In this document: piece by piece, positions 14,730-48,074 of the stretch | How the letters are laid out: the number at the start of each line of letters is the position of its first letter | Numbering within the stretch: position 1 is the first letter of the stretch | DNA from: Planctomycetota bacterium | Lineage (GTDB): Bacteria > Planctomycetota > UBA8108 > SXIK01 | Reading direction: 5' to 3' | NCBI GenBank assembly: GCA_965223845.1 | Contig: CBDCXR010000004.1 | Location: 2,880,001-2,944,000, forward strand | DNA length: 64,000 bases | Program-made: the position numbers and the translations under genes | Notes under the pieces: generated by a model | Told to the model about the DNA's origin: nothing | The model's input: the letters and a program-made list of their open reading frames with translations, nothing else | Database searches by the model: none

Positions 14730-17700
14730 ATGGGGACTTCAAAGAAAGAGGCCCGTTCCTCGCGCGGACTTACGGCGATTTTGCTAGTCGCGATCGCGGC
14801 CGGGAGCGCGGCGATTCTGTGGTGGAATCGCCCGCCGACGGATTCCGCTCGTGACGTCGCCGCCCCCGGCCCAGTCGGCGAATCCGCCGCCGGCCGGCCG
14901 ATCGAAGCGCCCGAGTTCGAGAAGCTCCGCCGGCGCACGATTCCCGGTGCCGATCGTTTCGAAGTGGAGACTCTCGCCGCCGAACTGGCTCCGAAGATCC
15001 GCGCACTAGAGGCCGAGTGGCGGGATCTTCCCCGTGATCGTTCCAGCGACGACGCGTCAGACCTAGTGGCGCCGACGTTCCGGTGGACGGCGCAGCACGC
15101 GGACGCTCGCCCGGCGGCCAGCATGGCGGACGGACTTCGCGCGCTGCTCGGTCGAGGCGTGGAGTCGCTCGACCACGTCGCGCTCAAGATCGTCCGGGTC
15201 GAGCCCGTCACGGAAGGGGAACTCGCGACGGAGCTGCGCTTCGAGCTCGTGGTCCGTCCGAGCTCGGGCGCGCACGTGAGCTGGACGGGGCGGGCACGCG
15301 TCCTCTGGACGTCCGAACGCAAGATCCGCGGGTGGAAGACGCTGTCCGTCGACTCGGTCGAGACGACCGGCCCTTTTCTTCGCGATGTTTCCGCGGCCGT
15401 GCTCCACGCGAACGCCGTCTACCACCAAGTCCTCGCGCACGGGATCGACCATTTCCGGGACCGACTCGACGCCGCCACGGGGATCGACGTCTACGGACAC
15501 TACGGAATCGCGGTCGGCGACGCGAACTCGGACGGCCTCGACGATCTCTATCTGCCGATGCCGCCGACCGTACCGAATGTCCTTCTCCTCGGCCAAACCG
15601 ACGGAACGTTTCGCGACGCCAGCACGGAGAGCGGCGCGAACCTCCTCGACGGCACGACGCAGGCGCTATTTCTCGATCTCGACAACGACGGGGACGACGA
15701 CATCGTGGCCCTCCTCGACGCGGGCGCGTGCGTGCTCCGCGGCGATGGCCGCGGGCGATTTGCCGTCGTTCCCGACGCGATCAGCGCGGGGTCCGCGCGC
15801 GGCTCACCGATCACCGTCGCTGCCGCCGACTACGACGCCGACGGCATCCTCGATCTCTATGTCGGTTCCTACGTCTTCTGGCGCGACCTATCGGGCGCGG
15901 TCGGCTCGCGTCTCCCGACGCCCTACCACGACGCGCAGAACGGTGCCCCGAATCGACTCCTCCGCGGGCGAGGAGACGGAACGTTTGAAGATGCGACCGC
16001 AGTCGCGGGGCTCGGAACGGTACACCGATTCACGTTCGCGGCGAGCTGGGCGGATTACGACTCGGACGGCGATGCCGACCTCTACGTTGCGAACGACTTC
16101 GGCAGCAACCAGCTCTTTCGCAATCGCGGTGACGGCACGTTCGAGGACGTCGCTCGAGTCGCGGGAGTCGTCGACATCGGACCGGGGATGAGCGTCGAGT
16201 GGTTCGACTACGATCGCGACGGCGATTTCGACCTCTACGTCGGAAACATGTTTTCCGCTGCCGGGCAGCGCGTCACGAACGAGCGCACTTACAAAGCGGG
16301 ATCTCCGGATCTTCAGCACGCGTACCGGAGACACGCCCGGGGGAATTCGCTCTACCGGAATCGCGGCGACGGCACGTTCGAAGACGCGAGTGAGTTTGCG
16401 CGAGCGACGTTCGGCCGCTGGGCCTGGGCGAGCGGGAACGTCGATTTCGATCTCGACGGTCACGACGATCTCTACGTTCAAAACGGCTTCGTGAGCAACG
16501 CTCGCGGACGCGAGCTCTGAAGCTTCTTCTGGCGACAGGTCGTGTCGCAGTCCCCCACGGCCGCGGTCAAGATCCAGCGGTACGAAGACGGCTGGAACGC
16601 GATCCAGCGCATGATCCGCGAAGACGAGTCGTGGAGCGGATGGGAACGGAACTGCGTCCACCTCGCTCGCGGCGACGGGAAGTTCACGGACGCGTCGGCG
16701 GTGAGTGGAGCCGACTACGCGACGGACGGACGCGCGTTCGCCGTCCTCGATGTCGATCGCGACGGACGTCCCGACCTCGCGCTACGGAATCGGAACGCGC
16801 CGACGCTGCGGATCGTGCAGAACGTGTGGCCCAATCCCGGGAGGTGCGTGTGGCTCCACCTCGAAGGGAGCACCGGCAACCGGGGCGCGATCGGGGCAGT
16901 CGTCGAAGTTCGTGCGGGGAAGGACCGCAGAGTGATTCCCATGACCGCCGGCTCCCGATTTCTCTCGCAGTCGAGCCGATGGCTCCCGATCGGTCTCGGC
17001 GACGCGCCCGGAGAAGTCGCGATCGCCGTTCGTTGGCCGGGCGGACGAACGCAAGAGCTCGGCGAACTCCAGCCGGGACACCGGTACTGGATTCGTGAGG
17101 GGGAGAGGCCCCGCGGAGAAGAATTGTCCGCGCGGCGAGAGTACGCCTCGATCGAGCCGAGCGACGCGCCAAGGAAGACCGGAGTCGGCACGTGGCTCAT
17201 CGAGCGCATTCCCGCTCCCGACTTCGAGCTGAAGAGAGTCGGCAAGAGCGAAATGCTGAATCTTCGCGGTCTGCGCGGCGCTCCCGTGCTTCTTCATATC
17301 CTCTCGCCGACGTGTGCCGTGTGCGTCGCGGCAGCACCCGAGCACCGACGGATCGAGAAGATCGCGACGGACGCGGGAGCACAACTCGTCCACGCGATCG
17401 TCGCGCGCAACGATCAAGACGCCGAGGCAGAGCGAATCCGCTTCGTCGAAGGGGCAGGCTACGAGGCGCCGGCGGTCGCGGCGGACGACGCGTTCGTCGC
17501 GGCGTACAACGTGCTTCACCGCGAGATCTGGAATCGCCGTCACGACCTCGCCGTGCCGACGACGATTTGGATCGACCCGGGCGGCTACGTCGTCCGCGTC
17601 GATCGCGGTGCGCTCGATCCGGATGCCGCTCGAGCGATCCTCGCGCAGTTTCCGCGATCGCCGAAGGAGCTGAGGACGCTCGCGATCGGTGATGCGTCCG

Positions 17701-18584
17701 GACCACTCGTCTACCCGGAAGCGTTCAGACGAAATTTCGCGGCTCTGGGAAACGCTTACCGCGAGGCCGGCTTCCCCGAGCTCGCGCGGTCCGCGTTCGC
17801 AGAGGACGCCGCAAGATCACCGAAGAGTTCGAACGCCCGCTTCAACCTCGCGGTCGTCGCGGCCGAGAGGGGTGACACCGCCGCCGCGGAGCGCATCTAC
17901 CGGGAAGTGATCGAGTCCGGTGAGTACTCGGGCGATGCGAGGAACAATCTCGCCGTCCTCCTCGCACAGCGGGGAGAGACCGATGCCGCGCTCCGTCTAC
18001 TCGTCGATCTCGTTGCGGGGAATCCCGCGCACGGCGAGGCGCCGCTCAACCTGGCCGGCATCCATCTTCGTTCGGGACGCGCCGAAGAAGCAGTGAAGGT
18101 GCTCGAGTCTGCCGTCCGAACGGACCCCGAGTCGGCTCGCTTTCGTCGCCAGCTCGCCTACGCACGGTACTCGTTAGGCGATGTCCACGGCGCCGAACAG
18201 GATTACCGACGTGCGATCGAGCTCGATCCGCTCGCATCCGAGTCCTACCGCGATCTCACCGCGCTCATCTTCGCCCAGGGACGCGAGCGCGAAGCCGCGG
18301 AGCTCGCCCGTCGCGGGATCGCGGTCGCGGGCGAAACCGCAGCGCTCCGGAATGCACTCGCGCTCGCGGAGATCGCGATCGGCCGGACGGAGGACGGACT
18401 CAACGGACTCCGGCGCGCGATCGAGCTCGACCCAAAACTCGTCCCGGCCTACGTGAACCTGATCGCGCACCTCGACGACCTGGGTCGCGAGAGTGAAGCG
18501 ACGGAGAATCTCGAACGGCTGCGGACGATCTCGCCGGAGGCGGCGGCGAGGGTGAGGCGGCGGCTGCGTGAGAGTGGGAAGTGA
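14730..18584 (+). CDS. Putative selenoprotein: N-terminal TM anchor + FG-GAP repeats + ASPIC-UnbV + redoxin (CxxC) + TPR, with Sec at UGA 16518-16520
   Basis: ORFs 14223..16520 and 16542..18584 are in the same frame, separated by a single TGA (GREL-U-SFFWRQVVSQSP). FG-GAP repeats continue across the junction and a SECIS-like hairpin follows. Confidence 0.8.
16518..16550 (+). promoter_or_regulatory. Putative bacterial SECIS element
   Basis: TGA + 11 nt + GCGACA-GGTCG-TGTCGC, a 6-bp perfect stem extendable by CT/AG with a bulged G. The loop starts with G at +18. Confidence 0.72.
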
Positions 18585-18759
18585 GCACGAGCGGGCACAA
18601 GAGCTTGAGTCGCGCGATCCTCTGTGCCCAGCGGCCGCGGCTCTCGTTTCTCGCATTTATGCTCGTCCACGACAGTCGAGCGTCCTCTCTTCGTGTCGTC
18701 GTACGCGGTGACGAGTGCACCGTGGTCGCTGATGTCTGGAAGCGGAAGGACTCCAGGCC

Positions 18760-20226
18760 ATGAGCGACAAGCAAGAGCTCATTCTCCTCACTGGAGCAAC
18801 GGGCTACGTCGGCGGACGACTGCTCTCTCAGCTCGAGAGCGAGAAGCGCCGAGTGCGCTGCCTCGCACGCCGGCCGGAGTTCCTGCGTCCGCGTGTCGCC
18901 TCCTCGACAGAAGTGGTCCAGGGGGACGTCCTCGACAAGGAGAGCCTCGCGTCCGCGATGGAAGGGGTCGACTTCGCCTACTATCTTGTCCACTCGATGG
19001 GCTCCAAAGGAGAATTCGTCGAAGAGGACCGCAGGGCCGCGGCCGTCTTCGCCGAGGTCGCGCGCGCAGCGGGCGTGAGCCGTCTCATCTACTTGGGAGG
19101 CCTCGGCCACGAGAAGAATCTTTCGGATCACTTGGCAAGCCGGCAAGAGGTCGGCGATGTGTTGCGGGGATCCGGGATCCCGACGGTCGAGTTTCGGGCT
19201 TCCATCATCATCGGTTCCGGCAGCCTGTCGTTCGAGATGATCCGAGCGCTCGTTGAGAAGCTACCCGCGATGATCACGCCACGCTGGGTCCGCTCCCGCG
19301 CGCAACCCATCGGCATCGAGGACGTGATCGCTTATCTGGTGCGAGCGCTCGATTTGTCGTTCGAGGAAAGCCGCGTGTTCGAAATCGGCGGCGCAGATCA
19401 AGCCTCGTACGGAGACATCATGACGGAGTACGCGCGGCAACGCGGGCTCCGGCGCTGGATCATTCCGGTCCCGGTGCTCAGCGCCCGGCTGTCGAGTCTC
19501 TGGCTGGGGCTCGTCACTCCCCTCTACGCCCGAGTTGGCCGGAAGCTCATCGACAGTCTGCGTCACGACACGGTGGTTGAGGATCCATCCGCCAGCGAAG
19601 TTTTTGGGATCCGGCCGGCGGGATTGCAAGCGGCGATCGAGCGAGCCCTCAGAAACGAAGACCACGATTTCGCGCAAACACGGTGGTCCGACGCCCTGTC
19701 TTCAAAGGGTAAGGAGCAGCGCTGGGGTGGAGTAAAGTTCGGATCGCGGCTCGTCGACTCGCGAGTCGCAACCGCGGAGTGTCCCGTCGCCGCAGCCTTT
19801 CGTCCGGTTCAACGGATCGGCGGAAAGACCGGTTGGTACTACGGCGACTGGCTGTGGCGAATCCGCGGATTCCTCGACCTTCTCGTGGGCGGCCCCGGTC
19901 TCAGAAGGGGACGAAGACACCCGGAACAGCTCGCACCTGGCGACACCGTTGATTTCTGGCGGGTCGAGAGGTTCGAGCAGGACCGCTCGCTCCTACTCAG
20001 CGCGGAGATGAAGCTCCCCGGCCGAGCCTGGCTCCACTTTGAAGTCGAGCCATGCGCCAAGGGCTCACTGATTCGTCAGACCGCGATCTTCGATCCGGTC
20101 GGGCTGCCGGCGCTCGTCTATTGGTATGGCCTCTACCCGCTTCACCAACTCGTCTTCGCTGGCATGTTGCGTGGCATCGCAAAGGAGGCTCTTCGCGATC
20201 GGGAGAAGCAAGGGAAAACAGTCTAG
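18760..20226 (+). CDS. NAD(P)-binding SDR/epimerase with DUF2867 C-terminal domain (YbjT-like)
   Basis: TGATGYVGG, YYLVHSM, HLASRQEVG, DFWRVE, AEMKLPGRAWL. Confidence 0.9.
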   Translation: MSDKQELILLTGATGYVGGRLLSQLESEKRRVRCLARRPEFLRPRVASSTEVVQGDVLDKESLASAMEGVDFAYYLVHSMGSKGEFVEEDRRAAAVFAEVARAAGVSRLIYLGGLGHEKNLSDHLASRQEVGDVLRGSGIPTVEFRASIIIGSGSLSFEMIRALVEKLPAMITPRWVRSRAQPIGIEDVIAYLVRALDLSFEESRVFEIGGADQASYGDIMTEYARQRGLRRWIIPVPVLSARLSSLWLGLVTPLYARVGRKLIDSLRHDTVVEDPSASEVFGIRPAGLQAAIERALRNEDHDFAQTRWSDALSSKGKEQRWGGVKFGSRLVDSRVATAECPVAAAFRPVQRIGGKTGWYYGDWLWRIRGFLDLLVGGPGLRRGRRHPEQLAPGDTVDFWRVERFEQDRSLLLSAEMKLPGRAWLHFEVEPCAKGSLIRQTAIFDPVGLPALVYWYGLYPLHQLVFAGMLRGIAKEALRDREKQGKTV

Positions 20227-20328
20227 CGTTGAGCGAGACCGAAGTCGCCGGGAACGAGGGAAGAGACTACGCGGTGAGTACCGCCTCGGCCCACTGAACC
20301 CGAGAGCACTGGGGATGCGCGCAACTGG

Positions 20329-21033
20329 TTGAAACAGGGAGTATCATCGCTCGATGAGAGGCGTCTTTCGTTTACACCTGAAGCCACTCTCCGAATGGGA
20401 CGATACGGATTGGTGTTGGACTTGCCTGACCAGATCAAGGAGACACCCACAAACCCTCCCGACGAGGCGATAGAAACGAAGCCCGAGCTCTGGCTCGATT
20501 GCTATGGCGACGTTCTCTTTCGGGACGCCATGGTGCGTCTCGGCGACCGAGCAGCGGCATCCGACGCCGTGCAAGAGACGCTGCTCGCCGCGCTAAGGGC
20601 CGTGCGGGAGGGGAAGTTCGACGGACGGGTGGAGTTTCGGCACTGGCTGAGGACGATTCTCCGTAACAAGGCGGTCGATCATGTTCGACGCCGAGTCCGC
20701 GAGCGCCCGCTCGACACGTCGGATCCCGAGGGAATGGGCGATACGCTCCTCTACAAACTGACCGGTGTGCCGACTAGAAGCCCGGAGAACTGGGCTTTCG
20801 ATCTCGAGATGGCCTTCGAGCGCGAAGAGTTTTGGGCGGCGTTCGAGTCGTGCATGTCCGGCTTGAGCGACGTCCAGCGTTCGGTGTTTACGATGAAGGT
20901 GATCGACGGCGTGTCGACGGAAGAGGTCTGTAACATCCTGAACGTCAACGCGAACAACATGGGGGTCCTTCTCCATCGCGCGCGTCAGGCCCTCAAGCGT
21001 TGCCTGGAAGGCAAATGGTTCGTCGCTGACTGA
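20329..21033 (+). CDS. ECF sigma-70 factor
   Basis: DAVQETLLAA, WLRTILRNKAVD, EVCNILNV..NNMGVLLHRAR. The real start may lie further downstream. Confidence 0.88.
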   Translation: MKQGVSSLDERRLSFTPEATLRMGRYGLVLDLPDQIKETPTNPPDEAIETKPELWLDCYGDVLFRDAMVRLGDRAAASDAVQETLLAALRAVREGKFDGRVEFRHWLRTILRNKAVDHVRRRVRERPLDTSDPEGMGDTLLYKLTGVPTRSPENWAFDLEMAFEREEFWAAFESCMSGLSDVQRSVFTMKVIDGVSTEEVCNILNVNANNMGVLLHRARQALKRCLEGKWFVAD

Positions 21034-21339
21034 GTGATCTACGTGCTTACCTGCAAACAAGTTGCCAAGAGCCTCGCCGAACGCGACTACGCGGAGCTGC
21101 CGCGTCTGAAGCGAGCCTTCCTGAAGCTGCACGTCCTTCTCTGCTTCGTCTGCGGGCGGTACCACCGGCACGTCATGCGCTTTCAGGACGGTGTCCGCCG
21201 TTATCGCAGCGGCGAATCCGCGAGGACGGCCTCTGCCAAGACGGACTTCTGTCTTCTTAGCGAGGAGCGGGAGTCGATCCGACGCGCGCTGAAGTCGGAG
21301 TCCTCCGAGCTCGACGTCGATCAGGAACCTTCGTCCTGA
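21034..21339 (+). CDS. Putative zinc-binding anti-sigma factor (zf-HC2-like)
   Basis: LTCKQV...LKLHVLLCFVCGRY (HxxxCxxC), directly after the ECF gene. Confidence 0.75.
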   Translation: MIYVLTCKQVAKSLAERDYAELPRLKRAFLKLHVLLCFVCGRYHRHVMRFQDGVRRYRSGESARTASAKTDFCLLSEERESIRRALKSESSELDVDQEPSS

Positions 21340-21603
21340 GCGATTCCGGGTCTCTTCCTCGCCGCTCGATCCCGTAAGTTGCTCTGCTCGAGCTACTTGA
21401 CTCCGGCGAGGGGACTGTCTTTCGACCGTCGACCTCGCCACACGCAGGGATTCGCGAAGAACCCTGTAAGAATCTCCGGGTCATGGCGATTCCCTATCGA
21501 TGCATCAAAGCGTTCAAAACGTTCACGTGTCGACGTTGACGCGCGGCCCCCGCGGCCGGGCGTGGACGGCGGGAACCCTCAGAACTTTTGGGAGACGAAT
21601 CTC

Positions 21604-22557
21604 ATGCCCCGGAAACTCTTTGCCGCGTTGTCACTCACCACTCTTCTGGCCCTCACGACGAACACCGCCTCGGCGAAACACCCTGACATTGTCAGCACGG
21701 CGATCGACGCTGGCTCGTTCAAGACTTTGATCGCTGCGCTCGAAGCTACCGATCTCGTCGACGCCCTCAAGGGCAAGGGTCCGTTCACGGTATTTGCGCC
21801 GACGGACGAGGCCTTTGCGAAGCTGCCGAAAGGTACGGTGGAGAAACTTCTCCGAGCGGAGAACAAGGGCACGCTCGCCGCGATCCTCACTTACCACGTG
21901 GTTCCTGGACGCGTCACCGCGAAGCACGTGACCAAGCTCAAGAACGCCAAGACGCTCAACGGACAGCGCGTCGATATCGCTGTCAAGGGCGACAAGGTAC
22001 GGATCGATGGCGCCAAGGTCATCAAGGCCGACATCGAAACGTGTAACGGCGTCATCCACGTCATCGATCGAGTGATCATGCCGAGCACCTCGGACATTGT
22101 GGAGACCGCCGTAAAGGCCGGCAGTTTCAAGACTCTCGCGGCCGCCCTCAAAGCTGCTTCGCTGGTCGAGACACTGCAGGGGAAGGGGCCGTTCACGGTC
22201 TTCGCGCCGACCGACGAAGCCTTTGCGAAGCTGCCGAAGGGCACCGCCGAGACGCTCGTTAAGCCTGAGAACATCGGCGAGCTGAAGGCTATCTTGACGT
22301 ACCACGTTGTCCCGGGACGCATCTACAGCACGGACCTGGACGACGGCAGCAAGGCGAAGACCCTGCAGGGCGGCTCGCTTGCCGTCCGTGTCTGTTCGAA
22401 GAGCGGTGTCCAAATCAATGACTCGAAGGTCGTGAAGGCGGACATCGACGCGGCCAACGGCGTGATCCATGTGATCGACAACGTCCTCATGCCGCCGGCT
22501 GAGAGTACAGCCTCCTCAACCGAGTCCCAAGAACACCGGGACGAGGCTGCCCTCTAG
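21604..22557 (+). CDS. Secreted fasciclin (FAS1) protein, two domains
   Basis: Two copies of [17 protein letters not shown]...ILTYHVV...NGVIHVID, plus a signal peptide. Confidence 0.95.
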
Positions 22558-22582
22558 AACTGAACCGCCCCCGTTCACACCT

Positions 22583-22625
22583 TCCGATCCGTCCGGAGGT
22601 TGAGACTTCGCCTCCGGGCGGATTG
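22583..22625 (+). terminator. Stem-loop after the fasciclin gene
   Basis: CCGATCCGTCCGGAGG ... CCTCCGGGCGGATTGG inverted repeat with G-U pairs on the + strand. Confidence 0.5.
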
Positions 22626-22644
22626 GTCTTAGCGAGAAACGATC

Positions 22645-23301
22645 ATGTTCATGGGACCGTTCATCTTGCTGCTCTCATCGACCAACTTGAAAGCCTGTGA
22701 AGGAGACTACTTGGTCACGCTCTACGATTTCTCCACCCCCTCCACCGCGGGTCGTTGGCGCACCATCAACGACAACGTCATGGGCGGAGTGTCACGCGGG
22801 AAGTTCCGTCTCTCCCTCGAGCGCAAGAGACTGCAATTCTTCGGAGAGCTCTCGCTTGAGAATCGCGGCGGCTTCGCCTCTGTCCGAAGCCGAGGGAAGA
22901 CGCACGATCTGTCGGAGTTCGAGGGAATCGCGCTCCGCATACGGGGAGATGGGCGGCGCTATTCAGTGAACGTCCGGACAAACCACACGCCATACGGCGG
23001 CTCCTATCGTGCTGGCCTTCAGACACGAAAGGGCGAGTGGATCACCGTTCGCGTGCCCTTCGCGTCGTTAGAACCGACTTTCCGCGGACGGCCTCTACCA
23101 GACGCGCCACCCCTCAATCGCCGTCAGATCCAATCCGTCGGTGTCACGCTGGCCGACAAGCGCGCAGGCCCGTTCAACTTAGAAATCGACTGGGTCAAGG
23201 CGTACAAAGCTCCGGCACCAAGGCCCCCGGAGACGGCGGACGAAACCGCCCATCCCGAAACCGCGAAGAGGGACGTCGCGGGAGAGACGGCGGATCCTTA
23301 A
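22645..23301 (+). CDS. CIA30-family protein
   Basis: WRTINDNVMGGVSRG, LSLENRGGFASVRS, GDGRRY. Confidence 0.9.
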   Translation: MFMGPFILLLSSTNLKACEGDYLVTLYDFSTPSTAGRWRTINDNVMGGVSRGKFRLSLERKRLQFFGELSLENRGGFASVRSRGKTHDLSEFEGIALRIRGDGRRYSVNVRTNHTPYGGSYRAGLQTRKGEWITVRVPFASLEPTFRGRPLPDAPPLNRRQIQSVGVTLADKRAGPFNLEIDWVKAYKAPAPRPPETADETAHPETAKRDVAGETADP

Positions 23302-23596
23302 TCCCTCAGTCTAGTCACCGATCGCCGAGCCCCCCGCCAGAGCAGTCTGCCTCCTGCGAATTCTCGATCTCCCAGCTACGATCATCGAGGCGCGGCGCCG
23401 TCCGTTCTCGCGGGGTGCCTCGATCGTAGAGGCGCCGGGAGGGAGGAGGCGGTGGGATTCGTCGCGATGGAGTCGGCAACAGCAATCTGAGAGAAGAAGC
23501 ACGCGGCACGCATCGACAGGCGGCCACGAAAACGCCTGAACGATAAGGAGAGCCCAGGTTCGCATATGCCGTCTTGAACTCGAGCTCGACGTTGGC

Positions 23597-24733: not shown

Positions 24734-24994
24734 GATCGCTTCCTTTCGTTGCGGATACCGTCCCAAGTACCGCGCGGTCACTCTCGAGGCCGCCCTCGGG
24801 TGGGATGGGGAAATGTGTTCCGCTGTACCTTCTCATCCACCGTCAAGGTCCAATCCCAACATGCGAATCGAGAGGCGGTTTGCGATGCCGTTGTAATGTC
24901 TTCGCCAATCGAGCATGAGGATCGAAGTCTGCAGTGCCCGTTCGGCGAGGATCGGGATTCTTTTGAAATCTGATGTTGGGAATGGGGATCATCG

Positions 24995-28323: not shown

Positions 28324-28329
28324 TCCGTC

Positions 28330-30511: not shown

Positions 30512-30523
30512 CCGATTTCTCCG

Positions 30524-38778: not shown

Positions 38779-38950
38779 GGACCGCCGATTCCCGCGGAGC
38801 GCCGCCCCGTTCGAGAGAGAATCGTCGAGGAAGCTCTCGACGTCTCCAACTCGGTCCCCCGGCACGCCGTAGACCCGATCGACGAAGTGGTACTCACTTC
38901 TCGAGGAACTCGATGACGGTTTCGACGAATCCGTCAGGATCAGGAAGGGA

Positions 38951-38993
38951 GTTCCGCTCTCTAGGCACGATCGTCGCGAATAGAGAGCGGAAC
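38951..38993. terminator. Hairpin between convergent genes
   Basis: 13-bp perfect arms GTTCCGCTCTCTA / TAGAGAGCGGAAC. Confidence 0.55.
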
Positions 38994-39018
38994 GTCCGAA
39001 GAATTCTGTTCGATAGCG

Positions 39019-40461
39019 CTAACGGCAAATAGCCGAAGAGCTCTCGCATCCGAGGTCATCGTCGTCCGTGGGATCCGCCCCGCATTGCGTCCCCGTGGGC
39101 GCAGGTAGGTCCACGCTCCCGACGAACAGGTAGTTCAGCGCGAAAACGGCGTCCGCGAGATTCACTCCGCCACTGTCGTCGGCATCGGCCGCGTCCGCAC
39201 AGGCGAGCACGTACCCTCGACTGAAGAGATGGTTCAGAGTGAAGATGGCGTCCGCCAAATTCACGCCGCCGTCGGAGTTGGCGTCTCCACGAAGGAATTT
39301 TCGGAGTTGGATGTCTCCGATCTCGAACGCCGCGCCGACAAGCTCGAAGGCACCGGCTTCTTCGGGAACGACCAGGCCGGCCTCGCCGCTCACCGAGTTT
39401 CGTACACTCTCGCCGAAGCAGATCGCGTCATTCCCGCTGATGCCGCCGTCGGCGAAAACGATTTCGGTATTGCCGGCCAGCGCGCCCTCGCGCACGCGAA
39501 ACTCGAGCTGCACGACCGGAGGATCGTAGCGGGGAGGGAGAAAGTTCGCCGCGTCGTCGACCGAGGTGAATCGGCCGCAGCAAACGACGTAGCCTTCGTC
39601 GGTGCCATTGTTCCCCGGGGTCAGATTATCGTTGTTGACCTCGACGGCGAAATCGTCGATCGCCCGACCGTCCGGGCGCTCCCACAAAAGAGTTCCGCCC
39701 ACGGCCTCGAGCTGTTCCTCGTCGAAGTCGATCGAGACGGAGAAACCGGAGGTCGGCTGGTTGGAGCTCAAGATGAGCGGAATGATCAACCGGTCCCCCG
39801 CCGACGGAACCGCGCCGACGCCAGACAGCTCGAACGTCACGTCGTAGTCGGAGAGATTCGGAACGACCGGCGGGCCCGTCACGCTCCCCGTGAGGCGAAC
39901 GTTGAAGGAGAGATCACTACTCCGGAGGCTCTCGTTGAGAACCTGGGCCGCGATGACATTCGCCCCCGCGCGGAGCTCCGAAGTCGCCCCTCCTAGGTCG
40001 AACGACTGCGGCGTTCCCGCCTCGTGATTGCAGTTCGCAAGCGAGCGGTAGGAGAGGGGCCCCCGATGCATATCGACGTTCGCGACCGCCACGGGAGTGC
40101 CGTTGATGTAGGCCACGAAGCCATCGTCGAAGTCCGCGGTCAGAACGAGATTCTCGATGCTGCTCGGATCGTCGATGTTGAAGACTTTGCGAACGTAGAC
40201 CGAGCTGAAGTTTTCCCTCATGCCCTCGATCGTCGTGGCATCGTCGCCGTCACCGTACCCGATGCCCAGCCGTCCGGTGTTCCAGTCCGAGTCGTCGAAT
40301 CCGAGCCGAGTCCACTGAGTGGTTCCCGCCGACGGATCCCGAGTCCCCTCGAAGTAGCGCCATTCCTCGCCGAAGTCGAGCAACACCTCTTCGGCGCTAA
40401 CCCCCGAATGAATCGCCCACGTGAGACACAACGCCCCGACGAGAGACAGAGTTCGCGACAT
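39019..40461 (-). CDS. Secreted protein: jelly-roll sugar-binding-like domain + cohesin-like domain + dockerin-like tail
   Basis: Signal peptide, WRYF.G..W...FDDSDW..G..GIGYGD, DFDDGFVAYING, IPLILSS..TSGFSVSIDFD, FLRGDANSDGGVNLADA. Confidence 0.75.
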   Translation of the reverse strand: MSRTLSLVGALCLTWAIHSGVSAEEVLLDFGEEWRYFEGTRDPSAGTTQWTRLGFDDSDWNTGRLGIGYGDGDDATTIEGMRENFSSVYVRKVFNIDDPSSIENLVLTADFDDGFVAYINGTPVAVANVDMHRGPLSYRSLANCNHEAGTPQSFDLGGATSELRAGANVIAAQVLNESLRSSDLSFNVRLTGSVTGPPVVPNLSDYDVTFELSGVGAVPSAGDRLIIPLILSSNQPTSGFSVSIDFDEEQLEAVGGTLLWERPDGRAIDDFAVEVNNDNLTPGNNGTDEGYVVCCGRFTSVDDAANFLPPRYDPPVVQLEFRVREGALAGNTEIVFADGGISGNDAICFGESVRNSVSGEAGLVVPEEAGAFELVGAAFEIGDIQLRKFLRGDANSDGGVNLADAIFTLNHLFSRGYVLACADAADADDSGGVNLADAVFALNYLFVGSVDLPAPTGTQCGADPTDDDDLGCESSSAICR

Positions 40462-40509
40462 GGCATCCTCCCTTGGATGGAATCCCTAAAGTCGATTTCG
40501 CTGGCCGGG

Positions 40510-43500
40510 CTACTCGACCGGCCCGTCCGAGGCAGATCGCACTTCCAGCCCCGACACGATCGCGACGTCGCGATCGGGTACGAAGCGGATATCGAGCGAA
40601 CCGTCCTCCACTTGAACCAGAAACTCGCGCTGCCTCGGCACGCCGAAGCCGGCACTCTCCAGCTCGTAGTCGTCGATCGATCGCGCCCCCTCGATGAAAA
40701 CGTCGAATCGCCTCGGCTCCCGAGTTCCGAGCACGATCTCCGCGAAGTGAAGGGTCACTCGATAACGTCCTCCTTTCACCGGAATGCGGTAGCCGGAGAA
40801 ATGCGCGCCGCCCGCGAACTGTCGCACCGATCGATGGAGCGCGATTCGATCCGAATCGTCGCCGGCGAGTTGCGGGCGCGCATACGTCTTGCCGCCGTGA
40901 AAGAACTGGTCCGCGGCCCATTTCGTGCCGCTCGACTCCTCGAAAGCCGCACCACCCGAGTTCAGGCGGAATGGCACATCGACGTGCCTGCCGGACGAGG
41001 ATTCACCGTGACTCCGATCGGGAGCACGATCCCGTTCGAGTCCGAGACGTTCGACGAGGTAGGCCGGAGCGTCGGGAAGACGGAGCGCCTCGCGAAGGAC
41101 GTCCGACGCCTCGGCCTCGCGCCCCGACACGCGGAGCGCCTCGCCCAGGACGGAGAGAACACTCGGATCGGACCGCGCCGTGGCGTCGACCGCCGCCGCA
41201 GCACTCGCGAGCGCGCCGGAGACGTCGTTCGGGCTTCGTCCGAAGAGCCGGGACGCCGCGAGCATGGCGAGAGCCGCCGGCTCCGTCGAGCGTGGCGCGG
41301 CGCCGTCACCGCGGTGAGATCGCAAGCCCGCGCCCAGTCGGTCCCACTCCGCCTCGAATCGGCCGTCTCTGCCGAGACGATGCTGGAGCGAGGCGAGTCG
41401 CGGCAGCAGCCAGCCGCGCGCGCGATTCTCAAGGACCGCGTCGACCCCGGTGGAAAACGCCTCGGCATAGCGACCCAGTCGCTCGAGCGCCCAGACCAAG
41501 TCGGCGACGGCTCGGTCGTAACTCGGATCGAGCTCCACCGCGCGGCGAAGGGATCGCAGGCCGGCATCGCTCTCGCCGAGGCGAAGTTGAAGAAGGCCGA
41601 GCTCGCGATGGGCTCCGGCGTCCGTCGCATCGAGCTCGACCGCGGCGAGCAGCGAATTAGCTGCTTCGGCCGGGCTGCCGTTCGCCGCCAGCGCCTGAGC
41701 CAATACCCGGTACGTCGACGTCCGGGGATCCGATGCGACGGACTCGCGAGCAACCTCGATCGCTTGATCGAACTGCCCTCGAGCGAGAAGGAGCCGACTC
41801 AGCTCGTAGCGCAGACGAAGGGATCGATGACGAGGATTTCCGCCCGCGATCTTCGCCGCAGCGCGGTACGTGTCCACCGCTTCGCGGAATCTCCCCCGGC
41901 GCTTGAAATGCCGAGCCAGGTGGAAGATCCACCGCGGTTCTTCGGGGCTCACCGCGATCGCGCGCTCAAAGTAATCCTCCGCGCGCGTCCAATCACCCTC
42001 CATCTCGTAGGCTGCCCCTAAGAGGCAGAGGGTCGCATCTCGACCCGGATTGAGCTCGTCTGCACGGTGAATGATCGTGAGGGCGTCTCGAATGCCCCCC
42101 CCCGACTTCGCGACCTTGAGCAGCGCCGCGCCCAGAGAATGGTGCAGTCGCGCATTGTCGGGAAATCGTGCGATTCCTTCGCGCCCGACGCGCACGGCCT
42201 CGTCGTAACGTCCGAGGAGATAGTTAAAGCTGGTCCGCAGCGCGAAGCTGAGTGACGCGTCGGTGCTCTTTCCGATCCATCGGAGTCCCTCTTCGTACTC
42301 GCGGTGAAACTTGTAGAACCCCGTCACCCAAGTGACGATCTCGTTCCGGAACTTCGGTTGGTGCTCGAACGCCTCTCCGAAGGTCCGGGCCGTTTCTTTC
42401 GGCTCCCCCTTCTCGAAGTAAGCCATCCCGAGGAGCAGCCTCGGTTCGACCGCGTCGGGCCAAATCGTAGTCGCCGCGATGAGCATCTCGACGGCTTCGG
42501 AAAGGCGGTCCGATTTCAGCAGTGCCGAGGCACCGCCGAGATAAAACTCGATGTCCGCCCCGAGGAACGGCTCCCCTTCGCTCTTCGAAACGTCGATGAG
42601 GCGCTTGTACGCGCTCGCGGCAACCGGCCAGTCCGACGCGCGGCTCGCTTGATAGGCCTCGAGCCAGAGCTCGCCCCATGCCGAGGCAGTTTTGGCCAAA
42701 GACGCCCGGGAGCGACCGAGCTCGACGTCGCGCAGAATTCGTGCGGGGACGAGACCGGAATCGAGCCGGAGTGCCTCGTCGAGGTCCTCGAGGGCCGCAT
42801 CTCCCCGACCTAAAAGACGAAGCCCGCGCGCCCGATGGAGGAACGCCTCCGCCCGTCGCGGATCGACGGCGATCGCATCACCGAGGCGCTTCAGCGCATC
42901 TTCGAGGGGAAGCAATCCCTCGCTCGGGAGAAGCGCGCTGCGCCAAACCCGTTCGGCGGACTGCCGCGGCGACGAGTTCGTTTCACTGTGGGCTCGCACC
43001 GTCTCGCCCGTCCACGCGTCGAGCGCCATCGCTCCGAGATGGAGCTGCATGACGGCTTCCTCGACTTCACTTCGGTACCTCCGTGCGGTTTCGAGCTCGC
43101 GCGAACTGCGATAGTTCCAGACCAGCAGACTCGAAGTGACGGCCAAGAGGACGATCGATGCCGAAAGCACGAGCTGCCGCCGGTTCTGCCAGGCACGACG
43201 TAGAATCGACTCCCACGCCGGGGGCACTCTCGCCTCGATGGGGTCTCCTCGAGAGAACCGTCTCAAGTCTTGGCCTAGCGCCTCCGCCGTTCGGTAGCGG
43301 TCGCTCGCGCTCTTCGCCATGCACCGCAGGACGATGGTCTCGAGGTCTTTGGGGACTCGAGGACTGATCGAGCGAATTCGCCGCGCGTCACGAGTGATCA
43401 CTTGGCTGAGAGTGTCCGCGTGGTCCTTCCCGCGAAACGGTGGCTCGCCCGTGAACGTTTCGTACATGGTCGCGCCGAGAGAATAGATATCGGTGCGGTG

Positions 43501-44325
43501 GTCGATCGGAATCCTTCGGCGCCGCGCCTGCTCCGGGCTCATGTACTGGGGAGTCCCGACGAAGTCGCCCGACTGCGTGAGCGACTCTTGGCCTTCGAGC
43601 CGTGCGAGTCCGAAGTCGAGGATTCGCAAGCGTTGCTGCGCGTCGAGAATCAGGTTCGACGGCTTGATATCGCGGTGGATAACACCCTTTCCGTGCGCGT
43701 GCTGCAGGCCGTCGGCAACCTCCGCGAAGATTCGAGCCAGACTGCCGAAATAAGAGACGTCGTCCTTTCTCCCAAAGGTCGTGACGCTCTCCGGATCTGC
43801 CTCCCTCAATCGCTCGAGGACGCGCGCCAAGGTCTCGCCCTCGACGTATTCCATCGCGAAGTAGGGAGTGTGTTCCTTGAGACCGACGCCGTACACGGGG
43901 ACGACGTTCGGGTGACTCAGCTTTCCCGCAGTCCGCGCCTCGCGCATGAATCGGCTGAACGCTTTGTCGTCCGCGGCTACGCCGGCAGGGAGGACCTTGA
44001 GGGCGACGGCGCGATCCATCGAGTTTTCCCATGCCTCGTACACGACTCCCATACCGCCGCGACCGAGTGGGCGCTGAAGGACGTAGTCTCCGAGAGTGCC
44101 CAGCGAGCGATGCGGCGTACCGCCTCCCAGCGCGCCATCGAAAACTCGGAGTTGGTCGACGAGGTCATCGGCAAGATGCGGATAGTCGCGCCGTACGTCC
44201 TCCACGCGGATCGCTTCGCCTGCGGTGAGCCTCTCGACGTACTCGGCGAAAACCATCTCGAGCTCGGAAAGTCCGTCGCTCGATCCTCCCGAGATGCCGT
44301 CGAACGGATCGGAATCATCGAACAT
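40510..44325 (-). CDS. Hanks-type Ser/Thr kinase with TM, TPR repeats and C-terminal malectin domain
   Basis: LGRGGMGVVY, HRDIKPSN, DFGLAR, GTPQYMSPEQ, then TPRs, then YRVTLHFAEI...RRFDVFIEG...AIVSGLEV. Confidence 0.93.
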   Translation of the reverse strand: MFDDSDPFDGISGGSSDGLSELEMVFAEYVERLTAGEAIRVEDVRRDYPHLADDLVDQLRVFDGALGGGTPHRSLGTLGDYVLQRPLGRGGMGVVYEAWENSMDRAVALKVLPAGVAADDKAFSRFMREARTAGKLSHPNVVPVYGVGLKEHTPYFAMEYVEGETLARVLERLREADPESVTTFGRKDDVSYFGSLARIFAEVADGLQHAHGKGVIHRDIKPSNLILDAQQRLRILDFGLARLEGQESLTQSGDFVGTPQYMSPEQARRRRIPIDHRTDIYSLGATMYETFTGEPPFRGKDHADTLSQVITRDARRIRSISPRVPKDLETIVLRCMAKSASDRYRTAEALGQDLRRFSRGDPIEARVPPAWESILRRAWQNRRQLVLSASIVLLAVTSSLLVWNYRSSRELETARRYRSEVEEAVMQLHLGAMALDAWTGETVRAHSETNSSPRQSAERVWRSALLPSEGLLPLEDALKRLGDAIAVDPRRAEAFLHRARGLRLLGRGDAALEDLDEALRLDSGLVPARILRDVELGRSRASLAKTASAWGELWLEAYQASRASDWPVAASAYKRLIDVSKSEGEPFLGADIEFYLGGASALLKSDRLSEAVEMLIAATTIWPDAVEPRLLLGMAYFEKGEPKETARTFGEAFEHQPKFRNEIVTWVTGFYKFHREYEEGLRWIGKSTDASLSFALRTSFNYLLGRYDEAVRVGREGIARFPDNARLHHSLGAALLKVAKSGGGIRDALTIIHRADELNPGRDATLCLLGAAYEMEGDWTRAEDYFERAIAVSPEEPRWIFHLARHFKRRGRFREAVDTYRAAAKIAGGNPRHRSLRLRYELSRLLLARGQFDQAIEVARESVASDPRTSTYRVLAQALAANGSPAEAANSLLAAVELDATDAGAHRELGLLQLRLGESDAGLRSLRRAVELDPSYDRAVADLVWALERLGRYAEAFSTGVDAVLENRARGWLLPRLASLQHRLGRDGRFEAEWDRLGAGLRSHRGDGAAPRSTEPAALAMLAASRLFGRSPNDVSGALASAAAAVDATARSDPSVLSVLGEALRVSGREAEASDVLREALRLPDAPAYLVERLGLERDRAPDRSHGESSSGRHVDVPFRLNSGGAAFEESSGTKWAADQFFHGGKTYARPQLAGDDSDRIALHRSVRQFAGGAHFSGYRIPVKGGRYRVTLHFAEIVLGTREPRRFDVFIEGARSIDDYELESAGFGVPRQREFLVQVEDGSLDIRFVPDRDVAIVSGLEVRSASDGPVE

Positions 44326-44935
44326 CTTGTTTCTCCGCGCCTTCGAGCCTGCGATCGGGAAGAGTGAGACTCTCGGTATCTCCGAACGCGCTCTTCAGCT
44401 GCTTGAGCGCCCGGTAGAGGAGCTGCTTCACCGCGTCCGGTGAGCGCCCCATCCGCCGCGCGACCGCGCTAAAGGACAGGCCGTCTACGCGGGTGAGGAG
44501 AATGACTTGCCGGTGGTCGGGGTCGAGCCGAGCGAGGGATTCCTCCAGTCGATCGAAACGCTCGCCCCGCCTGAGCTCGCTGCTCGGCGAAACGAGTTCG
44601 TCGGGAACATCCTCCTCGAGTGGCGCCCGACGCTCGCGCGCCGCTCGTCGCGCCGACTCGAGAACGACGTTTTCGGCGATCTTGCCGACCCAGCGAAAGA
44701 GGGAGTCTTCCCCGCGCCACTCGAAGCGCTGAATCGACCGAAAGCTGCGAAGGAGCGTTTCCTGGTACACGTCGTCGAACTCGATTCCGAGGGCTAGATA
44801 CGCATTCACCCGCGAAGCCACGACACCTCGGAAACGGCTCGCCTCCGTCCGCACGAGAAGTTCGAACGACTCGCGGTTTCCCGACTGAGCGGACGTCACG
44901 AGCGTTCGGATGTCTTGGGGGGCTTCCATTTGCAT
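44315..44935 (-). CDS. ECF sigma factor coupled to the Ser/Thr kinase
   Basis: AQSGNRESFELL, DDVYQETLL, FEWRG...FRWV, MGRSPDAVKQLLYRALKQLK. Overlaps the kinase start. Confidence 0.9.
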   Translation of the reverse strand: MQMEAPQDIRTLVTSAQSGNRESFELLVRTEASRFRGVVASRVNAYLALGIEFDDVYQETLLRSFRSIQRFEWRGEDSLFRWVGKIAENVVLESARRAARERRAPLEEDVPDELVSPSSELRRGERFDRLEESLARLDPDHRQVILLTRVDGLSFSAVARRMGRSPDAVKQLLYRALKQLKSAFGDTESLTLPDRRLEGAEKQDVR

Positions 44936-44977
44936 CGCGCGTGGACTAGCTCGCCTCGAGATACGTCCGGTGAAGGT

Positions 44978-46387
44978 TCAGTTCGGCGCGGCTTCGAATC
45001 CGCCGCACGCCGGTTGGCTCTCGCACGAGAGCGAATCTCGCGTGGGATCGCGGCCACACGCCGCTGCACCCGGTGCAGGCACCACGCGGCCGTCGAGAAA
45101 GAGCCAGTTGAGGGCGAAGATCGGATCGGAGAGCGTCACTCGTCCGTCGTCGTCGACGTCCGCAGCGTCTCTGCAGCCCGGTTCGTCTCCGTCCAGAAAC
45201 AACCAATTGAGCGTGTACAACGAATCGGAAAGAACGACCTGTCCGTCGCCGTCGGAATCCCCGCGCCGGAAGAGCGGTGAAGCGTCCGGGCGCTCGGTGA
45301 GCTTGGCGAGGTACTGCTCGGAGCGCGGGCCGCTCGTCCCGAAGACGACGTAGTCGCCGGCAGAAGTGAGCGCGAGAGATGGACTGCGGTCGACCTTCTC
45401 CGTGCCGAACACTTTCTCCCAGACGAGCTCACCCGCGGGATCCGTTCGGACCATGTAGAACTCCGTCGTGTCGAGTTCGCGAAAAATCGTCCATCCGACC
45501 GCCACGACCCCGCCGTCGGGAGCCGGGACGACCGAGCAGCCGCGAGCAGTTCCTGCTCCGGCGAACAACTTCTCCCAGACGACGTCGCCCCACTCCGGGC
45601 CGGTCCGGAGAACGAACATCGCTTCCGAAGCCGCAAATCCGACGACGACGAATCCGCCGTCCGGCATCTCCCGCACCGCCTTGCCGACGAATGGACGCCC
45701 TCGAGGGAACGTGGTCTCGCGCAGGAGCTCCCCCTCGCCGCTGACGAGGACAAGGTAAACACTGTCCCCGCGAGTGCCCGCGAGAATCAGATTCCCGTCG
45801 CGCGTCTCCTGGACCGAATTGACGGTGGAGTCCTCGTCGCCATCGTAGACCTCCTCCCAATGAAGGTCGCCGTCGCCGTCTGTCTTGGCGAGATAAGCGC
45901 GCCGATCCCGCGGACCATCGATCGCCGTCCGCCCGGCGACGACGTAGCCGCCGTCCGAAGTTTCGACCACGTCGAAGCCGGCGGTTTCCGCCTCCCGTTC
46001 GCCGATCCACTCCCACAGGAGCTCGCCGTCGCCGTCCGTCTTGAAGAGCCGCACGGCCAGCAGATCGTCCGCGCGGGGGATCGAGCCGCCGACAATAAAG
46101 CCGCCATCCGCGGTCTCGCGGACTCCCGATCCGGGGTAGAGCGGACCGTCGTAAGTCTTGGCCCAGACAATGTTCCCTTCGGAGTCCGTCCGAATTAGCC
46201 GCTCGCCGACGGCGATGAAACCCCCGTTCGTCGTGGGCTGCACGGTACCGTCGCCGTGGGAGATCCCGGGGCCGAGCCAGCGCTCCCATTCGACCTCCGG
46301 CGGCTCGGCCCCTCGAGCGGGTCCGCCGACGGTGACGAACGAGAGAACAGAGATCAGCCCGATCGAGTACGACCCGTGGCGAAACAT
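44978..46387 (-). CDS. Secreted beta-propeller repeat protein with dockerin-like tail
   Basis: Repeats T.DGG(F/Y)(I/V)V.G...(L/K)TD.DG.L.WE, then FRRGDSDGDGQVVLSD...CGRDPTRD. Confidence 0.82.
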   Translation of the reverse strand: MFRHGSYSIGLISVLSFVTVGGPARGAEPPEVEWERWLGPGISHGDGTVQPTTNGGFIAVGERLIRTDSEGNIVWAKTYDGPLYPGSGVRETADGGFIVGGSIPRADDLLAVRLFKTDGDGELLWEWIGEREAETAGFDVVETSDGGYVVAGRTAIDGPRDRRAYLAKTDGDGDLHWEEVYDGDEDSTVNSVQETRDGNLILAGTRGDSVYLVLVSGEGELLRETTFPRGRPFVGKAVREMPDGGFVVVGFAASEAMFVLRTGPEWGDVVWEKLFAGAGTARGCSVVPAPDGGVVAVGWTIFRELDTTEFYMVRTDPAGELVWEKVFGTEKVDRSPSLALTSAGDYVVFGTSGPRSEQYLAKLTERPDASPLFRRGDSDGDGQVVLSDSLYTLNWLFLDGDEPGCRDAADVDDDGRVTLSDPIFALNWLFLDGRVVPAPGAAACGRDPTRDSLSCESQPACGGFEAAPN

Positions 46388-46596
46388 CGAGTGCCTCCCC
46401 CTCCCGGCGGCCGGAATCCCTTCGAACGTCGCGGAGCCGGGGAACCGGCTCGGCCGAAGACGCCGGAGCTCGCGAGAGCTCCGTCACGCATCATCGTCAT
46501 GACGACGGCGGCCCGCGGGGAACGAGAAATCTCTTCGCGAACTGCCCGAAGAGCGGGCGGCGCGCTCCGATTCGGCGGCCGGTCGAGTCACCCAAT

Positions 46597-46643
46597 AAAA
46601 AAACGTCCCGCGATCGGGCGATGGATCGCTCGATCGCGGGACG
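46597..46643 (-). terminator. Intrinsic terminator of the selenoprotein gene
   Basis: Minus strand CGTCCCGCGATCGAGCGAT-CC-ATCGCCCGATCGCGGGACG followed by a T7 run, ~40 nt after the TAG stop at 46683. Confidence 0.75.
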
Positions 46644-46682
46644 CAGCTCACCGGAGCCGGCGGCGTCGGATCGCCTCGGCGG

Positions 46683-48074
46683 CTACTCTTCGAGGAGCCG
46701 CTTCAGCTCGTTCTCGAGCTCTTCGAGCCCGACGCCGATCTTGTGGTACCGGACGTTTCCACTCTTATCGACGAGGAACGTGGTCGGATAGAACCGGACG
46801 CCGAACGCCGCGGCCTCGTCGGCGCCGCCCATGAGCACGGTTTGCTTGAGCTCCTTCTCCTTGACGAACTTCTCGACGACGGGTTTCGGATTCTCCCACG
46901 TGTGCACCGCGACGACTTCAACTCCCTTAGCCCGGTACTTTTCCCCAAGCTTGCTGAGGTGCGGAGCCTCCGCACGACAAGGTCCTCACCCGTAGCCCCA
47001 GAAGTTGAGGATGCTCACCTTGCCCTTTCGCTTGGCGGCGAAGTCGTAGTCGTGGCCCGCGAGGTCGGGAAGCTGGATCGCCGGAGCGGCGCGACCGAGG
47101 ACTTTCTTGAGCGCAGCCCCCTCGGCCGACGATTCGTAGAGTTGCGCGTAGGCGCGGACGCGACTCTCGAACGCCGCGGCGAGTGGTGCCACCGGCGTGT
47201 CCTCGGCCGACTTCGAGAACGTTTCGACGACCTTGGCGAGCTCGTCCGACGACGCGCTGCGGGTATCGAAGGAGGTTCCGATCGTCTCCGCCTTCGCGAG
47301 AAGCTCGGCCCACGCGGGAGCGGAATCCCCGGTGTAGGCGACCGAGCTCTTCGCGGCTAGCTTCAGCGTGCGATCGAGAACGACCGGATCGCCTCCGCCC
47401 GGCGAAAACTCGAAGCCGGCGTGATGCTCGATCGCGGCGATCACACCGTCCGTCCCGAGAACGTAACGCTCCGAGTATGCTCGGACGGTGGCTTCCTGAC
47501 CATTGAACGAGAAAACCGTATCCTTCCCGCCCGTAAGCTCGCGCGTGACAACGACCTGATCCCCGGACTTCTCGACCTTCGTCACGAGGTCGGCGGTCGC
47601 CCAGCCGACGTTCAAGACGTGGAGCGACTCGGTCGAGCGTGCGCTCGTCCCTTCGGCCGGAAGGGCCGCGAGCGGAAGCGCGAGCGGAAAAAACACGCCG
47701 AGCGTGTGGTTCTCGTCGCTCCCCGCGGTCTCGAAGTCGCGCGGCCCGTGGGGACGGAGCACGGTAGAGCCAGCCTTCCGGGACACCGTCCAATGTTCGA
47801 TCGCCCCCTGCCGGCCGTCCTCATCCTCGAGCACCCGCGCGGTGAGGAGCGGCGTCCGTTCGTTCGCAGAGCTCCCGGTGAGAAGCACCAGTGTCGCGTC
47901 GTACTCGACGTTGAGCTCGTTGTCGCCGTGTTTTTGCAGCAGGGTCGCCTTTCCGGCCAGGGTCGCGAGTCGGTCCGGCTTGAGCTCGAGCCCCGGCGCG
48001 GCACTCGTCGGCGAGGCGAGGAAGAGTGTGGCCACCACCGCGAGGGCGGCAGCGGCGGTCGACACCGGACGCAT
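46683..48074 (-). CDS. Putative selenoprotein: secreted TlpA/redoxin-family thioredoxin with UxxC active site (Sec at UGA 46988-46986)
   Basis: ...APAIQLPDLAG...KGKVSILNFWGYG-TGA-GPCRAEAPHL...YPTTFLVDKSGNVR. The downstream ORF 46683..46907 is in frame. Signal peptide from ATG 48074. Confidence 0.9.
46959..46988 (-). promoter_or_regulatory. Putative bacterial SECIS element
   Basis: TGA + 10 nt + GTGCGGA-GGC-TCCGCAC, a 7-bp perfect stem. Loop G at +18, the same spacing as the element at 16518. Confidence 0.8.

Follow-up and report, generated by a model that had tools for sequence, protein, structure and literature searches.

The 64,000-nt stretch analysed here (the window) is taken from a Planctomycetota bacterium, assembly GCA_965223845.1, contig CBDCXR010000004.1, positions 2,880,001 to 2,944,000 of a 7.93-Mb genome in 4 contigs with 65% GC. 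Two genes in it, on opposite strands and 30.5 kb apart, are each interrupted by an in-frame TGA. Gene 1 encodes an FG-GAP/UnbV_ASPIC protein and gene 2 a ResA/TlpA-like protein. Each TGA is followed by a small hairpin, and the geometry given by the sequence-only reading of this locus was exact: counting from the base after the UGA, both elements have A17-G18-G19, and the stem closes at A17. The question is whether this identity reveals a selenocysteine (Sec) insertion sequence (SECIS) rule specific to the lineage, as that reading had proposed, or whether two ordinary elements happen to look alike. From comparative sequence analysis we consider it very probable that both are canonical bacterial SECIS hairpins at the shortest spacing, with Sec at the UGA, and that no lineage rule is involved. 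The shared A17-G18-G19 would then arise because both hairpins lie at the shortest spacing of the general bacterial SECIS model.

As PMC13188914 sets it out, the bacterial SECIS (the bSECISearch model) has a loop of 3-9 nt with G as its first or second base, mostly as N1 G [G|U] N N2, an upper stem of 4-16 bp, a spacing of 16-37 nt and a minimum free energy (MFE) of -7.5 kcal/mol or lower. Measured against this model, element 1 (5 nt, 6 bp) and element 2 (3 nt, 7 bp) both lie within the loop and stem ranges, the loops GGUCG and GGC both begin with G followed by G or U, and the bare hairpins have free energies of -7.9 and -9.9 kcal/mol, respectively. The spacing is 17 nt in both, at the lower bound of the range, and becomes 16 nt in element 2 if the closing A-U is counted as loop; element 2 (A-GGC-U) fits N1 G [G|U] N N2 literally. 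Like the elements described there, both hairpins stand directly 3' of the Sec-UGA and within the open reading frame (ORF). The comparison gave no qualitative difference, the spacing being the shortest allowed and no lower stem being evident. Within the window, neither 17-nt hairpin sequence is found a second time, and 100 shuffles gave an expectation of 0 for each. The Rfam scan gave no match up to E 10 for the region of element 1 and nothing but a chance SAM-IV match (E 4.9) for that of element 2. Rfam is not known to hold a general bacterial SECIS model, and its silence therefore has no bearing on the SECIS reading.

Table 1. Positions, in the window, of the two predicted selenoprotein genes, their SECIS hairpins and the adjacent SDR gene
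Feature	Position	Strand	Description
Gene 1	14730..18584 (stop included)	+	ORF with TGA read as U; 1284 amino acids (aa), predicted Sec at residue 597
Gene 1 predicted Sec codon UGA	16518..16520	+	Motif DL-U-SFFWRQVV
Predicted SECIS hairpin 1	16532..16548	+	6-bp stem, 16532-16537 with 16543-16548; loop GGUCG, 16538-16542, starting at +18; +1 = 16521, A17 = 16537, G18 = 16538, G19 = 16539
Gene 2	46683..48074	-	ORF with TGA read as U; 463 aa, predicted Sec at residue 363
Gene 2 predicted Sec codon UGA	46988-46986	-	First Cys place of CxxC; active site U-G-P-C
Predicted SECIS hairpin 2	46959..46975	-	7-bp stem, 46975-46969 with 46965-46959; loop GGC, 46968-46966, starting at +18; A17 = 46969, G18 = 46968, G19 = 46967
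SDR gene	48267-49043	+	Divergent from gene 2

Other selenoprotein genes of the genome were sought with a dicodon model of coding sequence, for which long ORFs served as the training set and which required coding signal on both sides of the TGA, at least 12 codons upstream and at least 15 downstream. It replaced a first filter based on codon usage (680 noisy candidates), and 578 of about 161,700 in-frame TGAs in the whole genome passed it. Eighty of these were examined (62 top-scoring, 16 picked by eye, some of them from a hairpin-filtered list, and 2 extra paralogs), and the Pfam scan covered 72 of the 80, that is, all but eight paralogs of gene 1. The majority of the candidates with high scores were rejected as pairs of neighbouring genes that share a frame (for example L23/L2, RmlA/RmlC and sigma/anti-sigma). 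What remained were at least 20 firm selenoprotein genes, eight of the gene-1 family and twelve with a Pfam domain running across the TGA (Redoxin, three AhpC-TSA, two Thioredoxin_7, GSHPx, OsmC, DUF3179, ArsC, Molybdopterin in FdhA, and gene 2), or 26 when the probable ones are included. The remaining Pfam-scanned candidates had no match or matches on one side only (e.g., ribosomal L23, L2). In NCBIfam, the ArsC family (seleno)protein model scored above its cut-off and a UshA-like (seleno)protein model was matched. Three secreted paralogs with GC-x-U, described below, are also counted as probable. For two further candidates, a motif and a hairpin are the only basis.

In these 26 genes the best G-loop starts at +17 in one, +18 in seven, +19 in three, +21 in two, +22 in three, +23 in one, +24 in three, +25 in one, +26 in two, and +27, +30 and +32 in one each, a spread that argues for the general model. 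A SECIS rule of the lineage's own, UGA-N16-AGG at a hairpin apex read by a specialised SelB and able to identify selenoprotein genes, is in our view very improbable. It is true that AGG at +17..19 is conserved within both families (6/8 gene-1 paralogs; 18/24 gene-2 orthologs, the other six having AGU), and that AGG with a hairpin follows 7/26 Sec-TGAs against only one of the 816 TGA stops of long ORFs. The frequency of AGG at +17..19, regardless of a hairpin, is 8/816 after those stops, 4/485 after TAA/TAG stops (0/485 with a hairpin) and 103/20,000 after out-of-frame TGAs (8/20,000 with a hairpin). But the seven cases are not independent, because six are gene-1 paralogs sharing WRQVV, the seventh being gene 2, and outside the gene-1 family the pattern is found in 1/18. 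FdhA (loop at +19, CCG at the AGG place), GPx (+26), the ArsC family protein (+24) and the UshA-like protein (+26) all lack it, as do four thioredoxin-fold genes with loops at +22 to +32, and even two gene-1 paralogs have the loop at +19 and +22 and one relative's copy at about +21. The proposal was to fall if the pattern proved equally frequent after genuine TGA stops or if other verified selenoprotein genes of this genome were without it; the pattern is rare after the stops, and other well-supported selenoprotein genes are indeed without it. SelB, whose C-terminal domain had been suggested as the place to look, is ordinary in length (645 aa) and in domain make-up, with EF-Tu domains, the SelB beta-barrel and the SelB-wing_3 winged helix (PF09107). 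Nor did the pattern serve to find unknown Sec families: the genome-wide scan gave 78 matches among 161,710 TGAs, of which seven were the known sites, and the only other match that passed the coding filter (C4:5733982, minus strand) had no family match and the look of a shadow frame. On the other hand, a looser test, which amounts to the bacterial SECIS model as PMC13188914 gives it (stem of at least 5 bp, loop start at +16 to +34, G[G/U] in the first loop positions), was passed by 25/26 Sec-TGAs and by 46/816 TGA stops. A mild preference for minimal spacing is conceivable. Both hairpins fit the bacterial SECIS model already established and thus provide no new recognition rule or search pattern.

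Whether the hairpins are maintained as RNA was judged from loci of this genome and its relatives; these sequences are kin, not independent, and are given as counts without P-values. The gene-1 alignment held 27 gap-free sequences, namely 21 of the 22 loci L012-L033 and six other paralogs, with L033 and the paralog L107 excluded because of a different hairpin register (loop starts near +21 and +22, respectively). All of the 156 cells of the 6 pairs of hairpin 1 were standard pairs, and the only freely variable pair, 18-28, took the forms AU17, GC3, GU3, CG2 and UG1. The covariation score was 0.200 versus 0.094 in shuffles (0/500 as high), and the third codon positions of the family are near-invariant as far as the stem reaches and divergent beyond it. 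In hairpin 2 (24 sequences) 140/140 cells were paired, with compensatory pairs at 16-28 (AU13, GC6, GU1) and 17-27 (GC8, CG7, AU5) and a score of 0.329 versus 0.107 in shuffles (0/500 as high); the loops are GGC in 18 gene-2 orthologs and GUC in six. Slid registers paired in only 9-68% of cells for both elements, versus 100% in the true register. The structure of both elements is thus conserved with compensatory changes among orthologs, as expected of a SECIS.

These data also bear on the idea that conserved peptides (WRQVVS; CRAEAPH), together with a GC-rich choice of codons, give rise to the hairpins, with the RNA structure itself unselected, for which we see scarcely any likelihood. Both stems do lie inside conserved peptide motifs, their stability equals that of shuffles, and the stem of element 1 recurs in Cys forms of the gene-1 family. 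Such forms, with a Cys codon at the Sec column, were found at 25 loci in 25 named genomes of Bryobacterales, Terriglobia, Polarisedimenticolia and Phycisphaerales (pattern search, one genome per species), and seven of them retain a hairpin of at least 5 pairs in the Sec register; conservation could therefore be partly attributable to coding constraint on WRQVV/WRRVV. However, the same peptide is encoded without the stem in 18/25 Cys forms, whereas the stem is present in 27/27 Sec forms. In gene 1 the third base of an Arg codon covaries with the first base of a Ser/Pro codon through five pair types and is never unpaired, in gene 2 the varying pairs couple the last position of a Pro codon with the middle position of an Ala/Arg/Lys codon, and where the peptide differs, displaced hairpins with G-U loops are found. 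In one of the Cys forms (L147-L171), L147 in a Phycisphaerales metagenome-assembled genome (MAG), a TGC codon is followed by the same 17-nt hairpin letter for letter, which looks like a fossil SECIS from a recent Sec-to-Cys change.

The UGA codons themselves are conserved. Gene 1 consists of an N-terminal hydrophobic anchor, FG-GAP repeats, UnbV_ASPIC, a weak redoxin-like domain with CxxC, and TPR repeats. FG-GAP_3 (6.5e-41, 139 bits) and UnbV_ASPIC (1.5e-10, 41 bits) were above the Pfam cut-off, TPR was matched as well, and AhpC-TSA and Redoxin scored slightly under the cut-off. FG-GAP repeats followed by UnbV_ASPIC mark the protein as a member of the FG-GAP/UnbV_ASPIC (CRTAC1-like) group; its sole solved relative is human CRTAC1 (9etn), matched via the repeats only. 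The eight paralogs in this genome, with 31-67% identity, have the TGA at one column in DL-U-S[FVD][FYW]WR. The TGA is likewise found in 21/21 strong loci of relatives (L013-L033), the eight weak loci L034-L041 being other FG-GAP proteins in which the motif region is not covered, and each of the 77 top-scoring relative rows (E <=8e-22) contains exactly one TGA. The 25 Cys-codon loci mean that Sec/Cys pairs exist for gene 1, though Asn is the commonest residue at this position.

Gene 2 carries a signal peptide (by eye and hydropathy), an N-terminal domain of about 320 aa without a Pfam match and a C-terminal redoxin domain (Redoxin 8.3e-21, 74.8 bits, cut-off 26.6; AhpC-TSA 2.3e-20). The fold, the C/U-x-x-C motif and the export signal assign it to the ResA/TlpA-like oxidoreductases. 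The NCBIfam ResA subfamily was matched at 1.3e-23, under its cut-off, and no specific equivalog is claimed because all equivalogs were under their cut-offs. Across 41 genomes, this one and 40 relatives, its matches were full-length, at 28-37% identity, with one TGA each; the TGA stands at the Sec column in 25/25 loci (genome and relatives), in the motifs UGPC, UGAC, UGIC and UGMC, and the paralogs of gene 2 in this genome have Cys there. A word-based search of the public protein collection for homologs returned only the gene's own 362-aa N-terminal fragment. Like the known ResA/TlpA-like selenoproteins, gene 2 combines the Redoxin/AhpC-TSA fold and an export signal with Sec in the first position of CxxC; unlike them, it has the large N-terminal domain. 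Its motif W-G-Y-G-U-G-P-C also differs from that of NCBIfam NF041054 ('ResA-like WAxxUGC motif-containing protein'; 30 bits, cut-off 300). Selenoprotein candidates described as 'thiol-disulfide isomerase-like thioredoxin' have been listed in planctomycetes (PMC4807772, Table S9).

The genome encodes the Sec machinery in full: selA (536 bits), selB (352.7 bits including the C-terminal piece, cut-off 242), selD (308 bits) and selC, the tRNA-Sec, found by ARAGORN and by Rfam RF01852 (68.1 bits, gathering score 47) with anticodon UCA. The nearest named homologs of SelB belong to Planctomycetota MAGs (57-62% identity). The UCA anticodon occurs in tRNA-Sec only, no second UGA-reading tRNA is present in the genome, and TGA is the stop of 821/1306 long training ORFs; the code is therefore standard and recoding would be site-specific. 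That the two TGAs are true stops, produced by split genes, pseudogenes or sequencing errors, is the least credible explanation: gene callers did split both genes, the public collection has only the N-terminal piece of gene 2, and most homologs of gene 1 have Asn at the Sec column, but across dozens of genomes, and in the eight paralogs, one single TGA occupies the same column, open frames of about 1000-1700 aa extend around it, Pfam domains cross the TGA of gene 2 and the Sec machinery is complete.

The selD match (G000:C4:5317241-5318161, minus strand, L010) sits in an 809-aa open frame, the model having 311 positions, which suggests a fusion or a long extension. ARAGORN also labelled two tRNA-like genes with CUA anticodons as 'tRNA-Pyl' (L173, G000:C4:1643846-1643919, minus strand; L174, 6791124-6791203, plus strand). 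For both, Rfam gave no tRNA match at E <=0.01; the two calls are false positives or else tRNAs of an atypical kind that read amber codons.

In the fdhF SECIS of E. coli, the loop has a G-U that SelB contacts. By analogy with what is established for SelB, the hairpin inside each coding sequence, just 3' of the in-frame UGA, would present its apical loop (G then G/U) to the C-terminal winged-helix domain of SelB, which would deliver Sec-tRNA(Sec) and thereby allow the UGA to be decoded as Sec. Gene 2 would then yield a periplasmic thiol:disulfide oxidoreductase of the ResA/TlpA-like kind whose C-x-x-C motif has become U-x-x-C, and gene 1 a membrane-anchored FG-GAP/UnbV_ASPIC protein with Sec in the conserved DL-U-SFFWRQVV.

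Several results weigh against the reading of two canonical SECIS hairpins without a lineage rule, in addition to the enrichment of AGG with a hairpin and the retention of the hairpin in some Cys forms noted above. The free energies satisfy the limit given in PMC13188914, but they are not better than those of shuffles. Folding z-scores ranged from -0.38 to +0.16 in 53- and 101-nt contexts, and in both contexts the MFE fold of element 1 pairs otherwise than in the proposed stem. Stability alone is uninformative here because the DNA is GC-rich. At the column of U597, 120 full-length database homologs of gene 1 have N in 101, A in 8, S in 7, G in 3 and C in 1, so that the Sec aligns with Asn in most of them, which is atypical for selenoproteins. 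This is outweighed by the 77 single-TGA rows, the eight paralogs and the 21/21 loci of relatives. For 6 of the 26 genes the basis is motif or paralogy only, and as the set came partly from hairpin-filtered lists, the figure of 25/26 for the looser test is inflated.

The sequence-only reading had taken two candidates in 64 kb, both with export or anchor signals, as a sign of a selenoprotein-rich genome with an extracytoplasmic selenoproteome, and here it was borne out. The N-terminal anchor of gene 1 and the signal peptide of gene 2 were recognised by eye and hydropathy, and in the same way N-terminal hydrophobic signals, lipoboxes or anchors were found in 23/26 proteins, the three without being FdhA and the ArsC-like and OsmC-like proteins. 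According to PMC12013277 and PMC13326102, selenoprotein-rich bacteria include Syntrophobacter fumaroxidans with 39, Desulfosediminicola flagellatus with at least 46 and the Olavius Delta 1 symbiont with 63 selenoproteins, and many thioredoxin-fold selenoproteins and FdhA are common to them and to this genome. In contrast to those Desulfobacterota, the genome studied here has fewer genes (20-26), belongs to a Planctomycetota-like phylum, has most of its selenoproteins exported or anchored and contains one expanded family of eight. A set that is mostly extracytoplasmic is unusual. Gene callers break each of these genes at the TGA, so that some 20-26 proteins here, and many more in related genomes, are wrongly annotated as two fragments each. 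The FG-GAP/UnbV_ASPIC family, three secreted paralogs with GC-x-U and a DUF3179 protein with U-x-x-C are targets for curation.

The three secreted paralogs (L104, L092 and L058; C4, minus strand, TGAs at 4375872, 75444 and 336114) have the TGA in all three within GC-x-U-NNG, the wider motif being G-(H/D)-P-L-(G/D)-(C/D)-C-x-U, and a G-loop hairpin at about +17 to +21. They gave no match in Pfam or NCBIfam and may be an undescribed selenoprotein family. The DUF3179 protein (L048, G000:C4:6836567, minus strand) has a signal peptide and the motif W-U-H-L-C; the Pfam domain crosses its TGA at 3.6e-46, and no NCBIfam selenoprotein model matched. In another candidate (G000:C4:5184660, minus strand) the TGA follows a signal-peptide-like stretch (…LSGS-U-C) and precedes a long Gly-rich region, with a G-loop hairpin at +20.

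The FG-GAP/UnbV_ASPIC selenoproteins occur in eight copies here and in multiple copies per genome across the order. Candidates described as ASPIC/UnbV plus FG-GAP were already listed in the planctomycetes P1 and P2 in a 2016 supplement (PMC4807772, Table S9); their nearest homolog had Gly at the Sec position, and bSECISearch found a SECIS in 3/4 (PMC4807772). They resemble gene 1 in domain description, in the TGA-split gene call, in the non-Cys nearest homolog and in the planctomycete host, the comparison being by description only, and gene 1 has redoxin and TPR at its C-terminus. Full-text literature searches that paired selenoprotein with FG-GAP, or selenocysteine with UnbV, ASPIC or CRTAC1, brought up no paper describing a family of this kind, none of the models in NCBIfam release 20 names it, and term searches of the main texts of a 2026 review and of the BSepDB and deep-Sep papers gave no mention. 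FG-GAP/UnbV_ASPIC selenoproteins have thus been seen before as candidates; what is new relative to P1 and P2 (PMC4807772) is the expansion to eight paralogs per genome, the Cys forms, the covariation of the hairpin and the neighbourhood described below. It is possible, although we regard it as doubtful, that they constitute an uncharacterised family of exported or anchored selenoproteins in which Sec was gained at an Asn/Gly/Ala/Ser position and not by a Cys swap, perhaps within a periplasmic redox network. If so, the family would offer a new selenol active site on a beta-propeller scaffold, which may cooperate with the CxxC redoxin domain of the same protein and with the Sec-TlpA-like reductase whose gene was its ancestral neighbour, in a redox network that runs on selenium and is largely periplasmic. 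With Sec aligned to non-Cys residues, homology finders based on Sec/Cys pairs would tend to miss it.

The two genes had also been described as unrelated, which is half right. Among related genomes, at least 10 from two genera have the ortholog of gene 2 about 4 kb downstream of that of gene 1 on the same strand, with a divergent SDR gene between them. The loci L124, L127 and L129 of relatives, for example, consist of an FG-GAP Sec gene (+), an SDR oxidoreductase (-) and a TlpA-like Sec gene (+). In the window the SDR gene is still divergent from gene 2, and gene 1 has been inverted and moved 30 kb away. At 26 selenoprotein genes in 7.93 Mb, or 0.21 per 64 kb, chance alone would be unlikely to put two of them into one window, and the ancestral neighbourhood is the likely reason for their co-occurrence. 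The arrangement is a neighbourhood and not an operon, with few independent lineages behind it.

A third in-frame TGA of the window, at 21031 (plus strand; G000:C4:2901031), has coding signal to either side but was rejected as a Sec codon. It is the stop of an ECF sigma-factor gene, the Sigma70_r4_2 domain ends before it, and beyond it the frame continues into a putative anti-sigma gene. Contig C1 of the assembly (15,005 bases) has 48% GC versus 63-68% in the other three contigs, and from this low GC it may be a foreign element or contamination.

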